Origin: Kofleriaceae bacterium
Lineage (GTDB): Bacteria; Myxococcota_A; Polyangia; Haliangiales; Haliangiaceae
Direction: 5' to 3'
Assembly: GCA_046597055.1 (NCBI GenBank)
Contig: JBKJLC010000237.1
Coordinates: 32,001-96,000 of the forward strand
DNA length: 64,000 nucleotides
Both the position numbers and the translations under genes were made by a program. This document shows positions 522-7,508 of this stretch, in pieces (the first letter of the stretch is position 1; each line of letters opens with the position of its first letter). The notes under the pieces were generated by a model. It saw only the letters and a list, made by a program, of their open reading frames with translations, did no database searches and was not told where the DNA came from.

Positions 522-1046
522 ATGCTACCAAGGATCATCGTGGACCAGGCAGAGCGGTATCTGCAGCTGGCGCTCCTGGGGCGGGCCGTGTTCGTGGCGT
601 CATCGGCGCCCGCGGCCCTGGTGCGACGCCGCGCCGACAACCAGGACACCGACAGCGACTCGCGCCCCTCGCTCGACGAGGAGGTCGATACCCTCATCGC
701 GCCGGTGCTCGGCCGCCGCCGCGGGCCGCGCGGCGTCGAGGTCTACCCGCTCGCCAAGAAGCTGGGCGCCTCGTTCGCCGACATGATCACCGTGGGCCGC
801 ACCCCCAACAATGACGTCGTGCTTCGCGACGTCACCGTGTCGCGCTTCCACGCGTACTTTCGCCAGCGCGGCGACAAGTGGATCGTGGCCGACGCCGGCT
901 CCAAGAACGGTAGCGAGCTCGGCGGCGAGCCGCTCGAGGCCCGCAAGGAGCGCGAGCTCGTGTCGGGCACCGCGGTGCGCATCGGCGACCTCGAGCTGAC
1001 GTTCTACACCGCGGCCGAGCTGTACGGCGTCCTCGGCGGTCGGTAG
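522..1046 (+). CDS. FHA-domain protein (start may be GTG at 540)
   Basis: FHA motifs ITVGRTPNND, VSRFHA, DAGSKNGS. Confidence 0.88.
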   Translation: MLPRIIVDQAERYLQLALLGRAVFVASSAPAALVRRRADNQDTDSDSRPSLDEEVDTLIAPVLGRRRGPRGVEVYPLAKKLGASFADMITVGRTPNNDVVLRDVTVSRFHAYFRQRGDKWIVADAGSKNGSELGGEPLEARKERELVSGTAVRIGDLELTFYTAAELYGVLGGR

Positions 1047-1161: not shown

Positions 1162-1659
1162 ATGGTCGACCCGGACTGGACGGAACGGCGCCTGTGCGAC
1201 GACGGTGGCTGCACCGGGGTCATCGGCGGCGATGGGCAGTGCAAGGTGTGCGGCCACGCGGCCCGCTTCTGGGGCGACGAGCGGCGACGTGGGCTCCGCA
1301 GCGACGACGACGCCGACCGCGAGACCAGCGAGCACGTGATCGCCCGGGCCATGCCGGTGGCCGAGGGCGAGGTCGCCGAGCGCCGGATGTGCGCCGACGG
1401 CGCCTGCGTCGGCCTCCTCGGAGACGACGGGCGCTGCAAGGTGTGCGGCGCGCTCGCGCCCGATGCACCCGTGCGGTCGTCCGCGGACGCGGGTGCCCGC
1501 GGCGACGACGGCGTTGGCGGTCGGTTCGCCGACCCCGACGAGGACGTGGCCGACGTCGAGGTCCGCGCGGTGTGCCCCGATGGCAACTGCATCGGCCTGA
1601 TCGGGGCCGATGGGCGCTGCAAGGCGTGCCTGCGCGCCGCCGGCGACCTGCCGGAGTGA
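1162..1659 (+). CDS. Hypothetical protein with three Cys4 repeats (putative metal-binding)
   Basis: Three copies of C-x-DG-x-C-x-G-x2-G-x-DG-x-C-K-x-C with acidic linkers; 3 bp upstream of the ThiF gene. Confidence 0.8.
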   Translation: MVDPDWTERRLCDDGGCTGVIGGDGQCKVCGHAARFWGDERRRGLRSDDDADRETSEHVIARAMPVAEGEVAERRMCADGACVGLLGDDGRCKVCGALAPDAPVRSSADAGARGDDGVGGRFADPDEDVADVEVRAVCPDGNCIGLIGADGRCKACLRAAGDLPE

Positions 1660-1662
1660 AAC

Positions 1663-2313
1663 GTGGCAGGTCCGCGCATCACCGTGATCGGCGCCGGCGG
1701 CCTGGGCGGGCCGATCGCGCTGGCGCTCGGTGATGCCGGCGCGGTGGTGACGGTGTGCGATCCCGACGTCGTCGAGCTGTCGAACCTGCACCGGCAGGTC
1801 CAGTTCGGGGTGGCCGATCTCGGCGCCGGCAAGGCGGCGGCGCTGGCGGCGGCGATCCAGGCGCGCGGGGGCACCGCGCGCAGCGTCGCGCGGCCGTTCG
1901 CGGCGGCGACCGCGGCCGAGCTGGCGGCGGATGCCGAGGTGCTCGTCGATGGCTGCGACGATCCCGTCACCAAGTTCGCGGTCGCCGACGGGGCCCGCCG
2001 GTCCGGCCGGCCGTACGTGATCGCCGCGGCGCTGCGCTACGGCGGGAACGTGTTCGCCGGGGCGCCCGGCACCGCCTGCTACCGGTGCCTGTTCGAGGAT
2101 CCGCCCGACGAAGCCCCGACCTGCGCGGACGCCGGCGTGCTCGGGCCGCTGGTCGGCTGGGTCGGCGGCGTCGCCGCCGCTGCCGCGCTGCGCCTGGCCG
2201 GCGGCGATCGGGCGGCCGCCGGGCGGATCTGGGTGCTCGACGATCTGCGCCGCGGTCCGCCCCGCGAGCTGGCCCTCACCCGCCGGCCCGGCTGCGGCTG
2301 CGAGGCGCCATGA
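1663..2313 (+). CDS. ThiF/MoeB/HesA E1-like adenylyltransferase, catalytic type, N-terminally short
   Basis: GAGGLG, DVVELSNLHRQ, DGCD, CYRC, PTCADAGVLG, C-terminal RRPGCGC. Confidence 0.9.
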   Translation: MAGPRITVIGAGGLGGPIALALGDAGAVVTVCDPDVVELSNLHRQVQFGVADLGAGKAAALAAAIQARGGTARSVARPFAAATAAELAADAEVLVDGCDDPVTKFAVADGARRSGRPYVIAAALRYGGNVFAGAPGTACYRCLFEDPPDEAPTCADAGVLGPLVGWVGGVAAAAALRLAGGDRAAAGRIWVLDDLRRGPPRELALTRRPGCGCEAP

Positions 2314-2756
2314 CCGCGTTCTCGCCAGCGCAGGTGCGGCGCTACGCGCGGCACGTGCTGCTGCCCGACGTCGGGGGCACCGGCCAGGCCCGGCTGCTCG
2401 CGGCCTGCGTCGCGGTCGATCTCGGGGGGGCCGCGGCGCGGGTCGCCGCGACGTACCTGGTGGCGGCCGGGGTCGGCCGGGTGTGGCTCACCGGCGACGA
2501 CGCCCGCGCGGTCGCGCTCGCCCGGTTCCCGCTGGTGCCGGCCGACCTCGGCCAGCCGATCGGCGCGGCGATGCGGACCGCGCTGGCCGGCCGCAACCCC
2601 GACGTCACGGTCGGGCTCGGCCCTCCGCCCGCTGGCACCGTACCCCTGGTGATCCCCGACGACACCGACGACCTGCCGCTCGCCGAGGCCTTCGCGCGGG
2701 GCGGCGCCGCGGCGGCGCTGATGGTGCACCGGCTGGCCACGGGCGGCCCGTCGTGA
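2310..2756 (+). CDS. Degenerate ThiF/MoeB-like protein retaining the N-terminal RYxRH helix
   Basis: ATGA overlap with upstream gene; RRYARHVLLPDVGGTGQARL and YLVAAGVG present; GxGxxG, SNLxRQ and Zn/catalytic cysteines absent. Confidence 0.8.
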   Translation: MTAFSPAQVRRYARHVLLPDVGGTGQARLLAACVAVDLGGAAARVAATYLVAAGVGRVWLTGDDARAVALARFPLVPADLGQPIGAAMRTALAGRNPDVTVGLGPPPAGTVPLVIPDDTDDLPLAEAFARGGAAAALMVHRLATGGPS

Positions 2757-3178
2757 TCACCGAGGATGCCTGGGCCACGCTGAGCGACCTGTGCGAGCAG
2801 GCCTATCCGCGCGAAGCGTGCGGGTGGCTGGCCGGCACCGACCCCGACCGGCTCGACACGGTGCGACCGGCCGCGACCGGCGGCCGCGATCACTTCCGGT
2901 TCTCCGCCGAAGATCTGCTCGCGCTCGCGGCGGCGACCCGCGGGGCCACGCCGCCGCGGGCGCTGTTCCACGCGCATCCCGACGGGGCCCCGACCCTGTC
3001 GGCGGCCGACCGCGCGGCCCTGGCGCCCGGCGGGGTCGTGCTGCACCCACTGCCGCACCTGGTCGTGGCGGTGGCCGGGCGGCGCGCCCACGCGGCGACG
3101 CTGCACGGCTGGCGCGCGGGTGCGCCGTTCGTGATCGCGCAGTGGCAGCGGGTCGGCGCGGCCTGGAGGCCGCGGTGA
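2753..3178 (+). CDS. JAB/Mov34/MPN+ (M67) metallopeptidase
   Basis: YPREACG glutamate and FHAHP-x6-SAAD JAMM motif; GTGA overlap. Confidence 0.88.
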   Translation: MITEDAWATLSDLCEQAYPREACGWLAGTDPDRLDTVRPAATGGRDHFRFSAEDLLALAAATRGATPPRALFHAHPDGAPTLSAADRAALAPGGVVLHPLPHLVVAVAGRRAHAATLHGWRAGAPFVIAQWQRVGAAWRPR

Positions 3179-3519
3179 CCCCCGATCCGATCCCGGCCGG
3201 GCCACGGCTGACGTTCGTCCTTGCCACCGGCCCGGCGGTCGGCGACCTCGCCCGGATCGTCGCGCTGGCGCGGGCCGCGCAGCGCCGCCACGTGCCGACC
3301 GCGCTGTTCGCCATGCACCACGGCGTGACCACGCTCGCCGCCGCGCCGGCCCTGGTCGCCGCGCTCCACGACGCCGACTGCGACGTGGTCGGGTGCGCCA
3401 CCAGCGCCGACCAGCTCGGCGTCGAGCTCGCGACCCTGGCCGCGGCCGGGGTCGCGATCGGCAGCCAGGACGATCATGCCCGCCTGGTTGATGGCGCCCG
3501 CGTGGTGGCGTTCACGTGA
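3175..3519 (+). CDS. DsrE/TusD-like sulfur relay protein
   Basis: DsrE-fold pattern LFAMHHGV, CATSA (candidate active Cys), GSQ; GTGA overlap. Confidence 0.75.
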   Translation: MTPDPIPAGPRLTFVLATGPAVGDLARIVALARAAQRRHVPTALFAMHHGVTTLAAAPALVAALHDADCDVVGCATSADQLGVELATLAAAGVAIGSQDDHARLVDGARVVAFT

Positions 3520-4025
3520 CCGCGCCGCCGGCCCGCGCCCCGGCGACCGCGGCCGTCCTCATCGGCACGGTCGACCCGGCGACCGCCGACGAGGCCCTGC
3601 GCGCGGCGGTGGGGCTGACCCTGCGCGGCGCGCGCGTGCTCGTCGTCCTCGCCGACCCGACCGTCACCTTCGGCGCGCGCGGCGCGCGGGCGCAGGCCAC
3701 GCTCCGCCTGTTCGCGCACCGCGTCGAGGGCTCCGACCACCTCGCCACCGCGCTGCAGGCCACCACGGTCGAGGTCTGGGGCCCGGTCGCGGCCCCTGCC
3801 GCGCCGGCCGCCCTCGACGGCGCCTCGCCCCACCCGGCCGCCGTCGAACCGCCGGTCGACCTCGTCCACCCGGTCGCCCCGCGGCTCCACCTGGTCCGCC
3901 CCGGCCGCGCATACCCGCTGCGGGGCGGTGACGACCTCGTGGTAGACCTGCCGGACCGCCTCGACGATGCCACCGCCGACCGCCTCCTCGAACTCGTCGT
4001 CCCCGCCGGCGCCGTCGTCTGGTGA
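3516..4025 (+). CDS. DsrF/TusC-like protein, possibly fused to a DsrH-like part
   Basis: DEALRAAVGL motif and C-terminal RLLELV...VVW; between DsrE and TusA; no Cys. Confidence 0.55.
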   Translation: MTAPPARAPATAAVLIGTVDPATADEALRAAVGLTLRGARVLVVLADPTVTFGARGARAQATLRLFAHRVEGSDHLATALQATTVEVWGPVAAPAAPAALDGASPHPAAVEPPVDLVHPVAPRLHLVRPGRAYPLRGGDDLVVDLPDRLDDATADRLLELVVPAGAVVW

Positions 4026-4257
4026 CCCCGACGGCACGCTCGACCTCGCGGGTGAGGTGTGTCCCTACACCTTCGTGCGGACCCGGCTCGCGCTCGAAGC
4101 GCTGCCGCTCGGGGCCCGCCTCGCCATCCTGGTCGATCACGAGCCGGCCCGGCGCAACCTGCCGCGCAGCGCCGTCGACTGGGGTCAGGAGATCGCCGGC
4201 GTCGACGAGGTCGCACCCGGGCGCTGGCGCATCGTCGTGATCAAGCGGGTTGCGTGA
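3967..4257 (+). CDS. tusA: Sulfurtransferase TusA/SirA family protein
   Basis: TLDLAGEVCPYTF CPxP-like motif, LVDHEPARRNLP. Confidence 0.85.
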   Translation: MPPPTASSNSSSPPAPSSGDPDGTLDLAGEVCPYTFVRTRLALEALPLGARLAILVDHEPARRNLPRSAVDWGQEIAGVDEVAPGRWRIVVIKRVA

Positions 4258-4288: not shown

Positions 4289-5823
<1,535 letters not shown>

Positions 5824-5873: not shown

Positions 5874-7508
5874 ATGCCTCTCTGGCTGTGGGTGATCCTG
5901 GGGGTGATCGCCGTGCTCGGCGTGGTCGCGATCTACGATCTCGTCCAGACCCAGCGCGCGATCCTGCGCAACTTCCCGATCGTCGGCCACCTCCGCTACA
6001 TCTTCGAGAAGGTCGGGCCCGAGCTCCGCCAGTACATCGTCACCGGCAATGACGAGGAGCGGCCGTTCTCGCGCGACCAGCGGCGCTGGGTCTACACGTC
6101 GGCCAAGAAGGAGAACAGCTACTTCGGCTTCGGCACCGACAACGATCTCGAGCAGTCGACCGGCTACATCATCATCCGCCACGCGGCGTTCCCGCTGACC
6201 ACCCCGTCGGCCGGGCAGCCCGGCTACGATCCGCTTCACCTGCTGCCGTGCGCCAAGGTCCTCGGCGCCAAGCGCGGCCGCGCCCGCGCGTTCCGCCCGC
6301 GCTCGATCATCAACGTTTCGGCGATGAGCTACGGCTCGCTGTCGGGCGCGGCGGTCGAGGCGATCAACCGCGGCGTCGCGATCGCCGGCGCCTTGCAGAA
6401 CACCGGCGAGGGTGGGATCTCCGACTTCCACCGCAAGGGCGGCGAGCTGATCTGGCAGATCGGCACCGGCTACTTCGGGTGCCGCGACGGCGCGGGCCGG
6501 TTCTCGATGGAGCGGTTCCTCGAGTCGATCGCGTCGGCGCCGGTGCGCGCCATCGAGATCAAGCTGTCACAAGGCGCCAAGCCCGGGATGGGCGGCCTCT
6601 TGCCGGCGGCCAAGGTCACGCCCGAGATCGCGCGCATCCGCGGCGTGCCGGTCGGCAAGGACGTGGTCAGCCCGGCCGCGCACGCGGAGTTCCGCGACGT
6701 GTCGTCGATGCTCGACTTCATCGAGCAGCTCGCCGAGGCCACCGGCCTGCCGGTCGGCATCAAGAGCGCGGTCGGCGAGTCCGGGTTCTGGCACGAGCTG
6801 GCCCGGCAGATGCGCCAGAGCGGCCGCGCGCCCGACTTCATCACGATCGATGGCGGCGAAGGCGGGACCGGCGCCGCGCCGCTGGTGTTCGCCGATCACG
6901 TGGCGATGCCGTGGAAGCTCGGCTTCAGCGAGGTCTACCGCGCGCTCGCCGAGGAGGGCGTCCACGAGGACGTCGTATTCATCGGCTCCGGCAAGCTCGG
7001 GTTCCCCGAGAACGCGCTGCTGGCGCTGGCGATGGGCGCCGACCTGATCAACGTGGCCCGCGAGGGGATGCTGGCGATCGGCTGCATCCAGGCCCAGCAG
7101 TGCCACACCGGCCACTGCCCGACCGGGGTCGCGACCCAGAGCAAGTGGCTCATGCGCGGGCTCGACCCGACCAACAAGTCGTACCGGCTGGCCAACTACC
7201 TGGTCGCGGTGCGCAAGGATCTGCTGCACCTCGCCCACGCCTGCGCCCAGGTCCATCCGGCGCTGGTCCCGCTCGACGCGATCGACATCATCGAGGGGCT
7301 GGTGCGCCGGCCGGCCCGCGAGGTGTTCGGCTACCAGCCGAGCTGGGGCCTGCCGCCCGACCCCGACCGGACCGCGATCGCCTCGATCATGAGCGGCCGC
7401 GAGGTGGTCTCGCCCCAGGCCGCCGCGCCCGGGGTGGCCGAGGGCACCGCCGCGCGCGCCGAGCAGGTCGCCAACGTCGCCGCCGGCAAGGCCCCGGGGC
7501 CGCCGTGA
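5874..7508 (+). CDS. FMN-binding glutamate synthase family protein
   Basis: SAMSYGSLS, NTGEGG, EIKLSQGAKPG, IDGGEGGTGAAP, CIQAQQCHTGHCP. Confidence 0.92.
   Translation: MPLWLWVILGVIAVLGVVAIYDLVQTQRAILRNFPIVGHLRYIFEKVGPELRQYIVTGNDEERPFSRDQRRWVYTSAKKENSYFGFGTDNDLEQSTGYIIIRHAAFPLTTPSAGQPGYDPLHLLPCAKVLGAKRGRARAFRPRSIINVSAMSYGSLSGAAVEAINRGVAIAGALQNTGEGGISDFHRKGGELIWQIGTGYFGCRDGAGRFSMERFLESIASAPVRAIEIKLSQGAKPGMGGLLPAAKVTPEIARIRGVPVGKDVVSPAAHAEFRDVSSMLDFIEQLAEATGLPVGIKSAVGESGFWHELARQMRQSGRAPDFITIDGGEGGTGAAPLVFADHVAMPWKLGFSEVYRALAEEGVHEDVVFIGSGKLGFPENALLALAMGADLINVAREGMLAIGCIQAQQCHTGHCPTGVATQSKWLMRGLDPTNKSYRLANYLVAVRKDLLHLAHACAQVHPALVPLDAIDIIEGLVRRPAREVFGYQPSWGLPPDPDRTAIASIMSGREVVSPQAAAPGVAEGTAARAEQVANVAAGKAPGPP

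Follow-up and report, generated by a model that had tools for sequence, protein, structure and literature searches.

Two overlapping genes on the forward strand of a Kofleriaceae genome probably encode a single asymmetric E1-like adenylyltransferase, in which an active but N-terminally shortened ThiF/MoeB-type enzyme (gene A, positions 1663..2313) would be completed by a catalytically dead paralog (gene B, positions 2310..2756) supplying the helix that the former lacks. Both lie in a stretch of 64,000 nt (hereafter the window, to which all positions refer; contig JBKJLC010000237.1 of assembly GCA_046597055.1). The heterodimer had been put forward in an initial annotation made from the DNA letters alone, and it draws support from the complementary motif losses of the two proteins, their strict co-location, the coupling of their frames and a predicted A/B interface of high confidence.

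Gene A starts with a GTG codon, 3 nt past the preceding gene's stop and in the same frame, and encodes a protein of 216 aa that matches the Pfam ThiF family (PF00899) above the gathering cut-off (E 7.3e-38, 130.5 bits vs 28.1). Its residues 5-211 cover positions 22-236 of the 238 of the profile, leaving the first 21 unmatched, and all NCBIfam MoeB/ThiF models score below their cut-offs, with matches beginning at about profile position 23-44. The protein opens 9 residues ahead of the GAGGLG loop (G10-G15), which is followed by SNLHRQ (S40-Q45), K57, an acidic cluster (D96/D99/D100), CYRC (C139-C142), the TC motif (T153-C154) and a second cysteine pair (C211/C213), so that both the coordinates and the motifs are as first described. 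GAGGLGGP, NLHRQ, R44, K57, D96/D99/D100, C139/C142, C154 and C211/C213 are invariant in 28 aligned A homologs, all of which (28/28) begin just ahead of GAGGLGGP. We take these residues to be the phosphate-binding Arg and Lys, the acidic Mg site and the four zinc cysteines, an assignment also based on ThiF Arg70 and MoeB Arg73 (PMC13139853). The N-terminal helix with a trans-acting arginine (of the ThiF Arg11/MoeB Arg14 type) is absent from gene A, according to the Pfam profile, the starts of its homologs and a search of the upstream DNA, and gene A has no rhodanese domain.

Gene B starts with an ATG within an ATGA overlap with the stop of gene A, which suggests coupled translation, and encodes a degenerate ThiF paralog of 148 aa that was characterized by Pfam, phmmer, alignment and AlphaFold2/Foldseek. 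Its sequence includes QVRRYARHVLLPDVGGTGQARLL, then YLVAAGVG, and it retains an N-terminal RYxRH helix (RYARH), a Rossmann remnant and a C-terminal dimer helix. The nucleotide loop is absent (DLGGAAA stands where GxGGxG is expected), as are the catalytic cysteines, a single cysteine being left in the whole protein; the earlier description of a partner that keeps RYARH and has lost the loop and cysteines therefore holds. The ThiF profile is matched below its cut-off of 28.1 (E 1.5e-4, 21.4 bits), residues 12-101 corresponding to profile positions 1-92. Among solved structures, phmmer finds E. coli ThiF (E 2.4e-7), aligning RRYARH with MRYSRQ and R14 of gene B with R11 of ThiF. The AlphaFold2 model (pLDDT 92, pTM 0.82) has the fold of an E1 adenylation domain in reduced form: its best Foldseek matches are ThiF (top entries 1zud/1zfn, with TM <= 0.72 when normalised to the query), Uba4 and MoeB, together with chains from the SUMO and NEDD8 E1s, among them 1y8q_A and 1r4m_A (E ~1e-5), which are presumably the inactive subunits of these enzymes.

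A match to gene B at E <= 1e-10 is found in 110 representatives (50% clustering), and the nucleotide loop is missing in 35/35 aligned B-type proteins. In a set of 188 B-type proteins, for which the lack of GxGGxG was a selection criterion rather than a result, R11, G22, Q26 and G54 are present in 188/188, and the finger arginine R14 in 182/188, being replaced by His or Gln in the other 6 and in 2 of the 12 genus loci. Over 101 aa, gene B is 46.5% identical to the rhodanese-ThiF gene of its own genome, whereas genes A and B give no BLASTP match and are linked by hhalign only at E 2.4e-4 (probability 43%), which points to an independent bacterial origin. Gene B evolves faster than gene A (median NG86 dN/dS of 0.71 and 0.53, respectively) and cannot be separated in this respect from the downstream genes JAB (0.65) or X7 (0.73), in a test weakened by a GC content of ~78% and an extreme GC3.

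The two genes occur together in 23/23 relatives' loci examined, loci that were picked through A or B matches and are thus not an unbiased sample; A is immediately ahead of B in 11/11 genus loci, and both are present in 12/12 more distant ones. Co-occurrence of the pair, which had been proposed as a check on the heterodimer, is consistent with it in these loci. In three genomes devoid of a B-type match (G017, G026 and G029), the best A matches are full-length ThiF-type ORFs, the same as those found with the B query, and these genomes thus show no A-type gene either. In a phylum sample of 301 genomes, full-length B-type matches are restricted, among the matches listed, to four genomes (G000, G015, G021 and G025). 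A search of named genome contigs with a 10-row B alignment kept 80 loci, in 8 of which the match extends at least as far as residue 135 of B; all 8 belong to MAGs labelled Myxococcales, Kofleriaceae or Deltaproteobacteria. Gene B is spread over several families of the order.

In ThiF and MoeB, Arg11 and Arg14, respectively, are contributed by the neighbouring subunit (PMC13139853), in agreement with the background invoked by the initial annotation. How would A and B meet? Prediction of a complex of A, B, ATP and Mg returns ipSAE values of 0.95, 0.95 and 0.94, compared with 0.06 for the best of 3 controls (the calibration mark for this score is reached by 116/157 solved complexes and 2/215 mismatched pairs), although these values may in part reflect likeness to the solved ThiF/MoeB homodimers. 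At least 96% of the contacts agree between runs, with a partner pLDDT of at least 93. The predicted interface follows the ThiF-dimer mode and involves residues 10-15 and 123-140 of B, and 38-47 and 154-173 of A, so that the RYARH segment of B touches A in the model. On motifs and model, the pair would combine two different subunits of the adenylation fold around a single active site.

The genes surrounding the pair are all on the forward strand. The cluster begins with an FHA-domain protein (522..1046; Pfam FHA E 8.4e-15) that is 73-89% identical across the genus loci holding it; its YGVLGGR end made it a candidate ubiquitin-like substrate, but this end, found in the window and in five loci (L002-L005 and L007), gives way to HVLAP, DVLSGSR, DLLQKP, ELLVHAD or RDGGPGSRS in orthologs further away, so the idea was dropped. 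Directly upstream of A, Zn3 (1162..1659) carries three CxDGxCxGxxGxDGxCKxCG zinc-ribbon-like repeats, has no match in Pfam or NCBIfam, and is kept in relatives upstream of A or of a CysK-like gene. Gene B is followed, with a GTGA overlap, by a JAB/JAMM metalloprotease of the Mec+/desampylase type (2753..3178; Pfam Prok-JAB E 1.7e-11), whose translation holds the intact motif HAHPDGAPTLSAAD (HxHx7Sx2D) and whose homolog lies downstream of B in 11/11 genus loci. Next come a DsrE-like sulfur relay protein (3175..3519; Pfam DsrE E 7.3e-5, 23.4 bits vs a cut-off of 22.7), whose position is conserved among relatives, and X7 (3516..4025), a single open frame without Pfam or NCBIfam family. In the low-GC relative G028, the slot of X7 is occupied by two genes (89 and 72 aa) whose ends ..ATEIWT and ..HVISW correspond to ..TTVEVWG and ..GAVVW in X7, which we read as a putative fusion of DsrF-like and DsrH-like parts. 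A TusA-family sulfurtransferase (3967..4257; Pfam TusA E 3.8e-16) and a LarE-family PP-loop ATPase with SGGVDS and LACLSSR motifs (4289..5158; NCBIfam TIGR00268, 281.8 bits vs 150) complete the operon, which the LarE-family gene closes in relatives too. Pfam detects no E2-like gene in the operon. This context, of sulfur-carrier chemistry rather than protein conjugation, had been missed by the first reading of the sequence.

In 10 of the 12 distant loci, a CysO-like GG protein (..VPAIAGG end) lies between A and B, accompanied by CysM-like and CysK-like genes and in some loci also by a MetM-like gene and ATP sulfurylase; the association of a carrier and a PLP sulfhydrylase with an E1 and a JAB protease, as in the CysO/CysM/Mec+ system, is therefore found in these 10. 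In L060 and L062, the CysO-like protein continues for some residues past its GG. In such extended operons, B comes directly after the carrier or a NIL gene and directly ahead of the CysM-like gene, and JAB, DsrE/F/H, TusA and the LarE-family gene follow in every relative's operon. The NIL-domain ORF of relatives (81 aa) was also considered as a carrier, since MetO might be a NIL protein, and set aside: its last residues are AG in three loci and AP in L054, and it adjoins the CysO-like gene.

The operon of the window is the compact form, without carrier and PLP enzymes. No ThiS-family match is present on its contig, and the queries used find no CysO-like gene and no NIL-family match in the assembly (94% complete), where the top CysM-like match reaches 40% identity. 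Among other genomes with compact operons, no CysO-like gene is found in G020 and G028 (the positive control G023 being matched), and G003 and G015 show a 39%-identical and a weak match, respectively, both away from the operon. G028 is a genome of 1.6 Mb (98% complete) in which gene A is the sole ThiF-family gene above the cut-off, and a MoaD-MoaE fusion the sole ThiS-family match, which suggests that the pair acts as an E1.

From these elements, the following mechanism can be proposed. Gene A would hold the only ATP/Mg site, the zinc cysteine pairs and the TC cysteine, and the catalytically dead B would pair with it through the usual ThiF/MoeB dimer helices, laying its RYARH helix, the counterpart of ThiF Arg11/MoeB Arg14, against the SNLHRQ phosphate-binding region of A. 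The substrate of the A/B enzyme would be a sulfur carrier of the ubiquitin fold, adenylated at its C-terminal glycine. Since gene A has no rhodanese domain, TusA and the DsrE/F/H-like proteins of the operon would act as the relay that provides the sulfur, and the JAB protease may trim the carrier or free its adducts. In this genome, the best candidate carrier is a fused MoaD-MoaE on contig C209; another MoaD-like gene, on contig C107, looks unrelated because it is preceded by an apparent aldehyde oxidoreductase. A broader version of this scheme is tentative, and we hold it to be rather doubtful as a whole: A/B would be an independently evolved, obligate two-gene E1 that arose by complementary degeneration, the trans-acting helix having gone from A and the active site from B, and that forms, with JAB and the TusA/DsrEFH relay, a general module for sulfur-carrier activation, which in compact operons would also mature fused MoaD-MoaE molybdopterin synthase, with JAB as a MoaX-type protease and the pair as the only E1 of the 1.6-Mb relative. 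The protease acting on mycobacterial MoaX is described as 'as yet unidentified' in PMC4326299.

Could gene A do without gene B? As an alternative that we regard as unlikely without being negligible, A would be a self-sufficient, finger-less homodimeric E1, and B would act separately, for example as an adaptor holding the carrier for JAB or for a CysM-like enzyme, its dead E1 fold serving only as a binding surface. The arginine finger is described as catalytically non-essential in MoeB/ThiF and as missing in E. coli TcdA (PMC13139853), so gene A alone might be active. This, together with the His or Gln that a few B-type proteins carry in place of R14, counts against the obligate character given to the pair in the initial annotation. 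The extended operons, with B set between the carrier or NIL gene and the CysM-like gene, apart from A, point the same way, as does the existence of a B-JAB fusion (the single metagenomic protein P0128), whereas the best 150 representatives include no A-B fusion (their long matches are ordinary rhodanese-ThiF and ThiS-ThiF proteins, and one B-JAB fusion). However, B retains exactly what builds the ThiF dimer, an N-terminal helix together with the GGxAA helix on the C-terminal side, the corresponding first helix of A is gone in 28/28 aligned members, the predicted A/B interface is canonical (0.95 vs 0.06 for the best control), and compact operons without CysM or carrier still keep B, coupled to A.

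The idea that B is merely left over from a ThiF duplication, decaying and without function, is contradicted by its conservation and seems very improbable. Its Pfam score under the gathering threshold, its relatively high dN/dS (0.71) and the loss of the central part of the domain would fit such a decay, but the frame is open in 12/12 genus loci, B is found across several families of the order and in 110 representatives at E <= 1e-10, R11, G22, Q26 and G54 are invariant in the 188 B-type proteins, the model folds confidently (pLDDT 92), and B is kept even in the 1.6-Mb genome of G028; the decaying paralog absent in relatives, which the initial annotation had named as a refutation of its own proposal, is thus not what is observed. 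The same annotation had named an upstream frameshift restoring an RYxR helix to gene A, and an artefact of this kind, with the helix masked by a frameshift or by a miscalled start, is also contradicted and has hardly any credibility, despite a start located 3 nt past the upstream stop in the same frame. The motif [RK][YF]x[RK][QH] occurs upstream of the G-loop in 0/20 loci (three forward frames, 360 nt; 24 loci were searched, gene A being located by regular expression in 20 and missed in 4), the frame ahead of A is occupied by Zn3, itself conserved, 15/15 fetched and independently called homologs are equally short, starting 3-15 aa ahead of the loop, and the low-GC G028 has the same short A start, adjoining EF-P.

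If the asymmetric A/B enzyme is real, a two-gene heterodimer working in ordinary sulfur-carrier metabolism would mean that an asymmetric, one-site E1 can arise in bacteria outside conjugation, and that duplication followed by complementary loss is a route towards it. According to a 2023 paper (PMC10557695), all known bacterial E1-like proteins (ThiS activator, MoeB, Cap2) are homodimers, except for the fused BilD, and no description of a two-gene bacterial E1 of the A/B kind was found in the literature searched, part of it in partial text. The 148-aa pseudo-subunit B could serve as a tool to ask why a second protomer is needed (stability, arginine or carrier binding), and the Kofleriaceae-type operon would join carrier-dependent cysteine/homocysteine synthesis to a TusA/DsrEFH relay.

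Several known systems can be compared with the pair. Like A/B, the eukaryotic NAE1(APPBP1)-UBA3 and SAE1-SAE2 enzymes consist of two different adenylation-fold polypeptides with one ATP site, and their inactive subunit retains an N-terminal helix of the xYxRQ type reaching the partner's site, of which B has an equivalent. In contrast, B has just 148 aa, and A, with 216 aa and a short crossover region only, has neither the inserted catalytic-cysteine domain nor the ubiquitin-fold domain; no E2 is found near A/B, and the product is presumably a thiocarboxylate instead of a conjugate. With regard to sulfur metabolism, the relatives' operons share with the MoeZ(R)-CysO-CysM-Mec+ and MetM/MetO routes the CysO-like GG carrier, the CysM-/CysK-like genes and JAB, as well as, in some cases, a MetM-like ThrC homolog, whereas the operon of the window has no carrier and PLP enzymes. 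MetO, Mec, MoeZ and MetM are listed as a single pathway in GapMind 2026 (PMC13759103, Table 2), and MoeZR serves Moco as well as cysteine synthesis (PMC4326299). MoeZ is a homodimeric ThiF-rhodanese fusion, unlike the rhodanese-free A and B, which stand alongside TusA, DsrE/F/H-like and LarE-family genes. In BubCD (PMC11601596), a JAB peptidase is joined to an E1 adenylation domain that is active and homodimeric, whereas P0128 joins the protease to the dead subunit B.

Precedents for the design are found in two other systems. BilD, from the bacterial Bil antiviral ubiquitination system, fuses two adenylation domains, one inactive and one active, with a single site, to which the inactive one provides Arg9 (PMC10557695); the inactive domain comes first in this single polypeptide, which also has a mobile CYS domain and works with an E2, whereas A/B are two genes, active then inactive, without CYS domain and in a context of sulfur metabolism. 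The yeast ct6A synthase Tcd1-Tcd2 is a ThiF-domain heterodimer in which the active subunit is stabilised by an inactive one that also gives a non-essential arginine finger (PMC13139853); unlike A/B, this eukaryotic enzyme works on tRNA t6A, and has two full-length subunits with C-terminal domains. The bacterial parallel of the eukaryotic design claimed in the initial annotation is therefore supported in part, as regards a predicted one-site asymmetric pair, but such a design is not unique to it: with BilD and Tcd1-Tcd2 as precedents, the asymmetric E1 represented by A/B is not without parallel.

Gene A (1663-2313, plus strand) encodes a ThiF/MoeB adenylyltransferase whose match to the ThiF profile (E 7.3e-38) begins only at profile position 22, its GAGGLG loop starting at residue 10, and which has SNLHRQ, K57, a D96/D99/D100 cluster, CYRC, the TC cysteine and a C-terminal CxC. 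Its homologs are 205-243 aa long, with a start 3-15 residues ahead of the loop in 15/15 whose sequence was retrieved, and the catalytic and zinc residues show no variation in an alignment of 28 sequences. The initial annotation had described A as lacking the N-terminal helix with its catalytic motifs intact, and this description stands. It had also considered that an upstream frameshift might restore an RYxR helix; the helix motif was found upstream of A in 0/20 loci (all forward frames, 360 nt), and a frameshift is, within this test, excluded as the source of the short start.

The overlapping gene B (2310-2756, plus strand; 148 aa) is, as proposed, the complement of A in sequence comparison, since it keeps the RYARH finger helix, has no GxGGxG nucleotide loop and contains one cysteine only. 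It weakly matches positions 1-92 of the ThiF profile (E 1.5e-4, under Pfam's cut-off) and, among solved structures, E. coli ThiF (E 2.4e-7); since RRYARH of B aligns with MRYSRQ of ThiF, R14 of B is the counterpart of ThiF R11. Metagenomes contain many B-type proteins (~140-180 aa): a single-sequence search found 750 matches at E <= 1e-3, a search among 50%-identity representatives gave 110 at E <= 1e-10, and from the 256 proteins of both searches the 188 of 120-200 aa without a nucleotide loop were kept. R11, G22, Q26 and G54 of B are each found in 188/188, Y12 in 183 and R14 in 182 (the exceptions being three His and three Gln). This constancy, together with the presence of B in relatives' loci, speaks against a decaying paralog, and judged by their sequences A and B are families, not accidents; dN/dS, another proposed check, gave no discrimination (B 0.71, A 0.53, the JAB gene 0.65 and the downstream gene X7 0.73). 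B is 46.5% identical over 101 residues to a rhodanese-ThiF gene of the same genome, its likeness to A being much lower; it probably arose from a canonical gene by shortening, and not by duplication of A.

The suggested search for the pair in relatives found A directly 5' of B, with JAB next, in 11/11 genus-level loci, and both genes in 12 more loci, spread over other genera and families within the order (B being weak in genome G022 and found by only some of the searches in G027), all of these loci having been picked up by B or A matches and therefore forming no unbiased census. In three genomes without a B-type match no A-type gene was seen either; the best A matches there coincided with matches of the B query, on full-length ThiF-type ORFs. 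Full-length B-type genes were confined to the same order in the sampled genomes, among the matches listed, and named records with a full-length B match are MAGs bearing the label Myxococcales, Kofleriaceae or Deltaproteobacteria.

A and B are predicted to form a two-gene heterodimer, and this is well supported computationally. One complex prediction combined A, B, ATP and Mg; A/B ipSAE was 0.95, 0.95 and 0.94 against 0.06 for the best of three controls, the calibration mark being attained by 116/157 solved complexes versus 2/215 mismatched pairs. At least 96% of contacts agree between A/B runs (partner pLDDT at least 93). In the model, the B C-terminal helix 123-140 packs against A 154-173 and 17-25, and B 10-15 faces a surface including A 38-47 (SNLHRQ); ThiF/MoeB dimers pack in this mode, so the high score may stem partly from likeness to solved homodimers. 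Modelled alone, B has a confident fold (pLDDT 92), residues 1-20 being less certain (block means 75 and 57), and it resembles ThiF, Uba4, MoeB, and SUMO/NEDD8 E1 entries such as 1y8q_A and 1r4m_A.

What B contributes to the pair is less clear-cut than the finger mechanism first put forward. The available text of PMC13139853 confirms that the neighbouring subunit supplies the finger, Arg11 in ThiF and Arg14 in MoeB; it also describes these residues as catalytically non-essential, and TcdA as having none. Given this description and the 6/188 B-type proteins lacking R14, scaffolding is at least as likely as arginine donation to be the reason for keeping B.

The operon part of the sequence (~70-80% G+C) is a plus-strand run of genes linked by 4-nt ATGA/GTGA overlaps, with families named from Pfam and NCBIfam: an FHA protein (522-1046), Zn3 (1162-1659), A, B, a JAB protease (2753-3178), a DsrE-like protein (3175-3519), X7 (3516-4025), TusA (3967-4257) and a LarE-family PP-loop ATPase (4289-5158), after which comes a DUF882/peptidase M15 protein (5200-5823; Pfam E 3.2e-32). 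The small FHA protein, first of the cluster, has a weak OdhI/GarA likeness, below cut-off, and a C-terminal YGVLGGR kept in the nearest relatives only. Zn3 (165 aa) carries three zinc-ribbon-like repeats of CxDGxCxGxxGxDGxCKxCG separated by acidic linkers of varying length, has no Pfam or NCBIfam family match, and is kept directly 5' of A or of a CysK-like gene in most relatives' loci checked. Two small genes appear to have been fused in X7, its counterpart in the low-GC relative G028 being two genes of 89 and 72 aa (locus L055, 7747-8016 and 8013-8231), which we read, without a family match, as DsrF-like and DsrH-like. Identified by eye, EF-P and EpmA-like ORFs lie upstream on the opposite strand, and a UvrA-like ORF farther upstream on the plus strand. 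Contig C39 of the same genome holds, upstream of the window, an ORF of ~1380 aa that resembles DEAD-box helicases (locus L018, 2245-6387) and contains a very long Arg/Asp/Pro-rich stretch with repeat units such as DDRPAR and EDRPAR.

The purpose of the enzyme is better answered by relatives' operons than by the window. In 10/12 more distant loci, A and B are separated by a gene for a CysO-like carrier of 90 aa with the C-terminus ..VPAIAGG (GG being followed by a few extra residues in two loci); these extended operons hold a CysK-like gene 5' of A and a CysM-like gene 3' of B, and some add a ThrC/MetM-like gene, an 81-aa NIL-domain gene and ATP sulfurylase. They are a gene set for carrier-thiocarboxylate-dependent cysteine and homocysteine synthesis. 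In operons with a MetM-like gene, the NIL-domain ORF (L052 6822-7067, Pfam E 6.5e-14; same slot in L053, L054 and L056) has the CysO-like gene on one side and B on the other. In locus L067 (G022 contig C11, ~5883-6818, minus strand), one open frame without an intervening stop covers both A and the CysO-like gene, which may thus encode a fused E1-carrier protein; the carrier part has an internal ATG ahead of it.

Operons with only A-B-JAB-DsrE-X7-TusA-LarE occur in the window's genus, G020 and G028. The window's genome assembly (94% complete) gave no match to the CysO-like or NIL gene and, for the CysM-like gene, a best match of 40% identity; its ThiS-family genes are ThiS, a MoaD-like gene following an ORF interpreted as aldehyde oxidoreductase, and a fused MoaD-MoaE. 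G028 (1.6 Mb, 98% complete) has A as its sole ThiF-family gene above cut-off and, as its sole ThiS-family match, a MoaD-MoaE fusion with internal ..PPVSGG. Molybdopterin synthase is such a fusion, with a ..PPV[AS]GG junction, in L049 (contig C209 of the window's genome), L151 (G020) and L152 (G028). Fused mycobacterial MoaX needs a cut after GG, by a protease unidentified in 2015 according to the available text of PMC4326299. From the fusions, the G028 gene content and this cleavage need, we infer that in compact operons A/B would activate MoaD, and JAB would release it from MoaE.

Excerpts of PMC13759103 place MetO, Mec, MoeZ and MetM in one pathway (GapMind 2026), and those of PMC4326299 assign MoeZR two roles, one in Moco and one in cysteine synthesis. 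MoeZ is homodimeric, whereas here A plus B take its place, and TusA with the DsrE/F/H-like proteins would plausibly stand in for the missing rhodanese domain. Literature searches, covering sources in part, found no description of a two-gene heterodimeric E1 in bacterial sulfur-carrier metabolism. The nearest systems, as given in the available texts, each differ from such an enzyme: bacterial BilD fuses an inactive and an active E1 (PMC10557695), in BubCD an E1 domain is linked to JAB (PMC11601596), and yeast Tcd1-Tcd2 is a ThiF-domain heterodimer whose dead partner donates the finger (PMC13139853).
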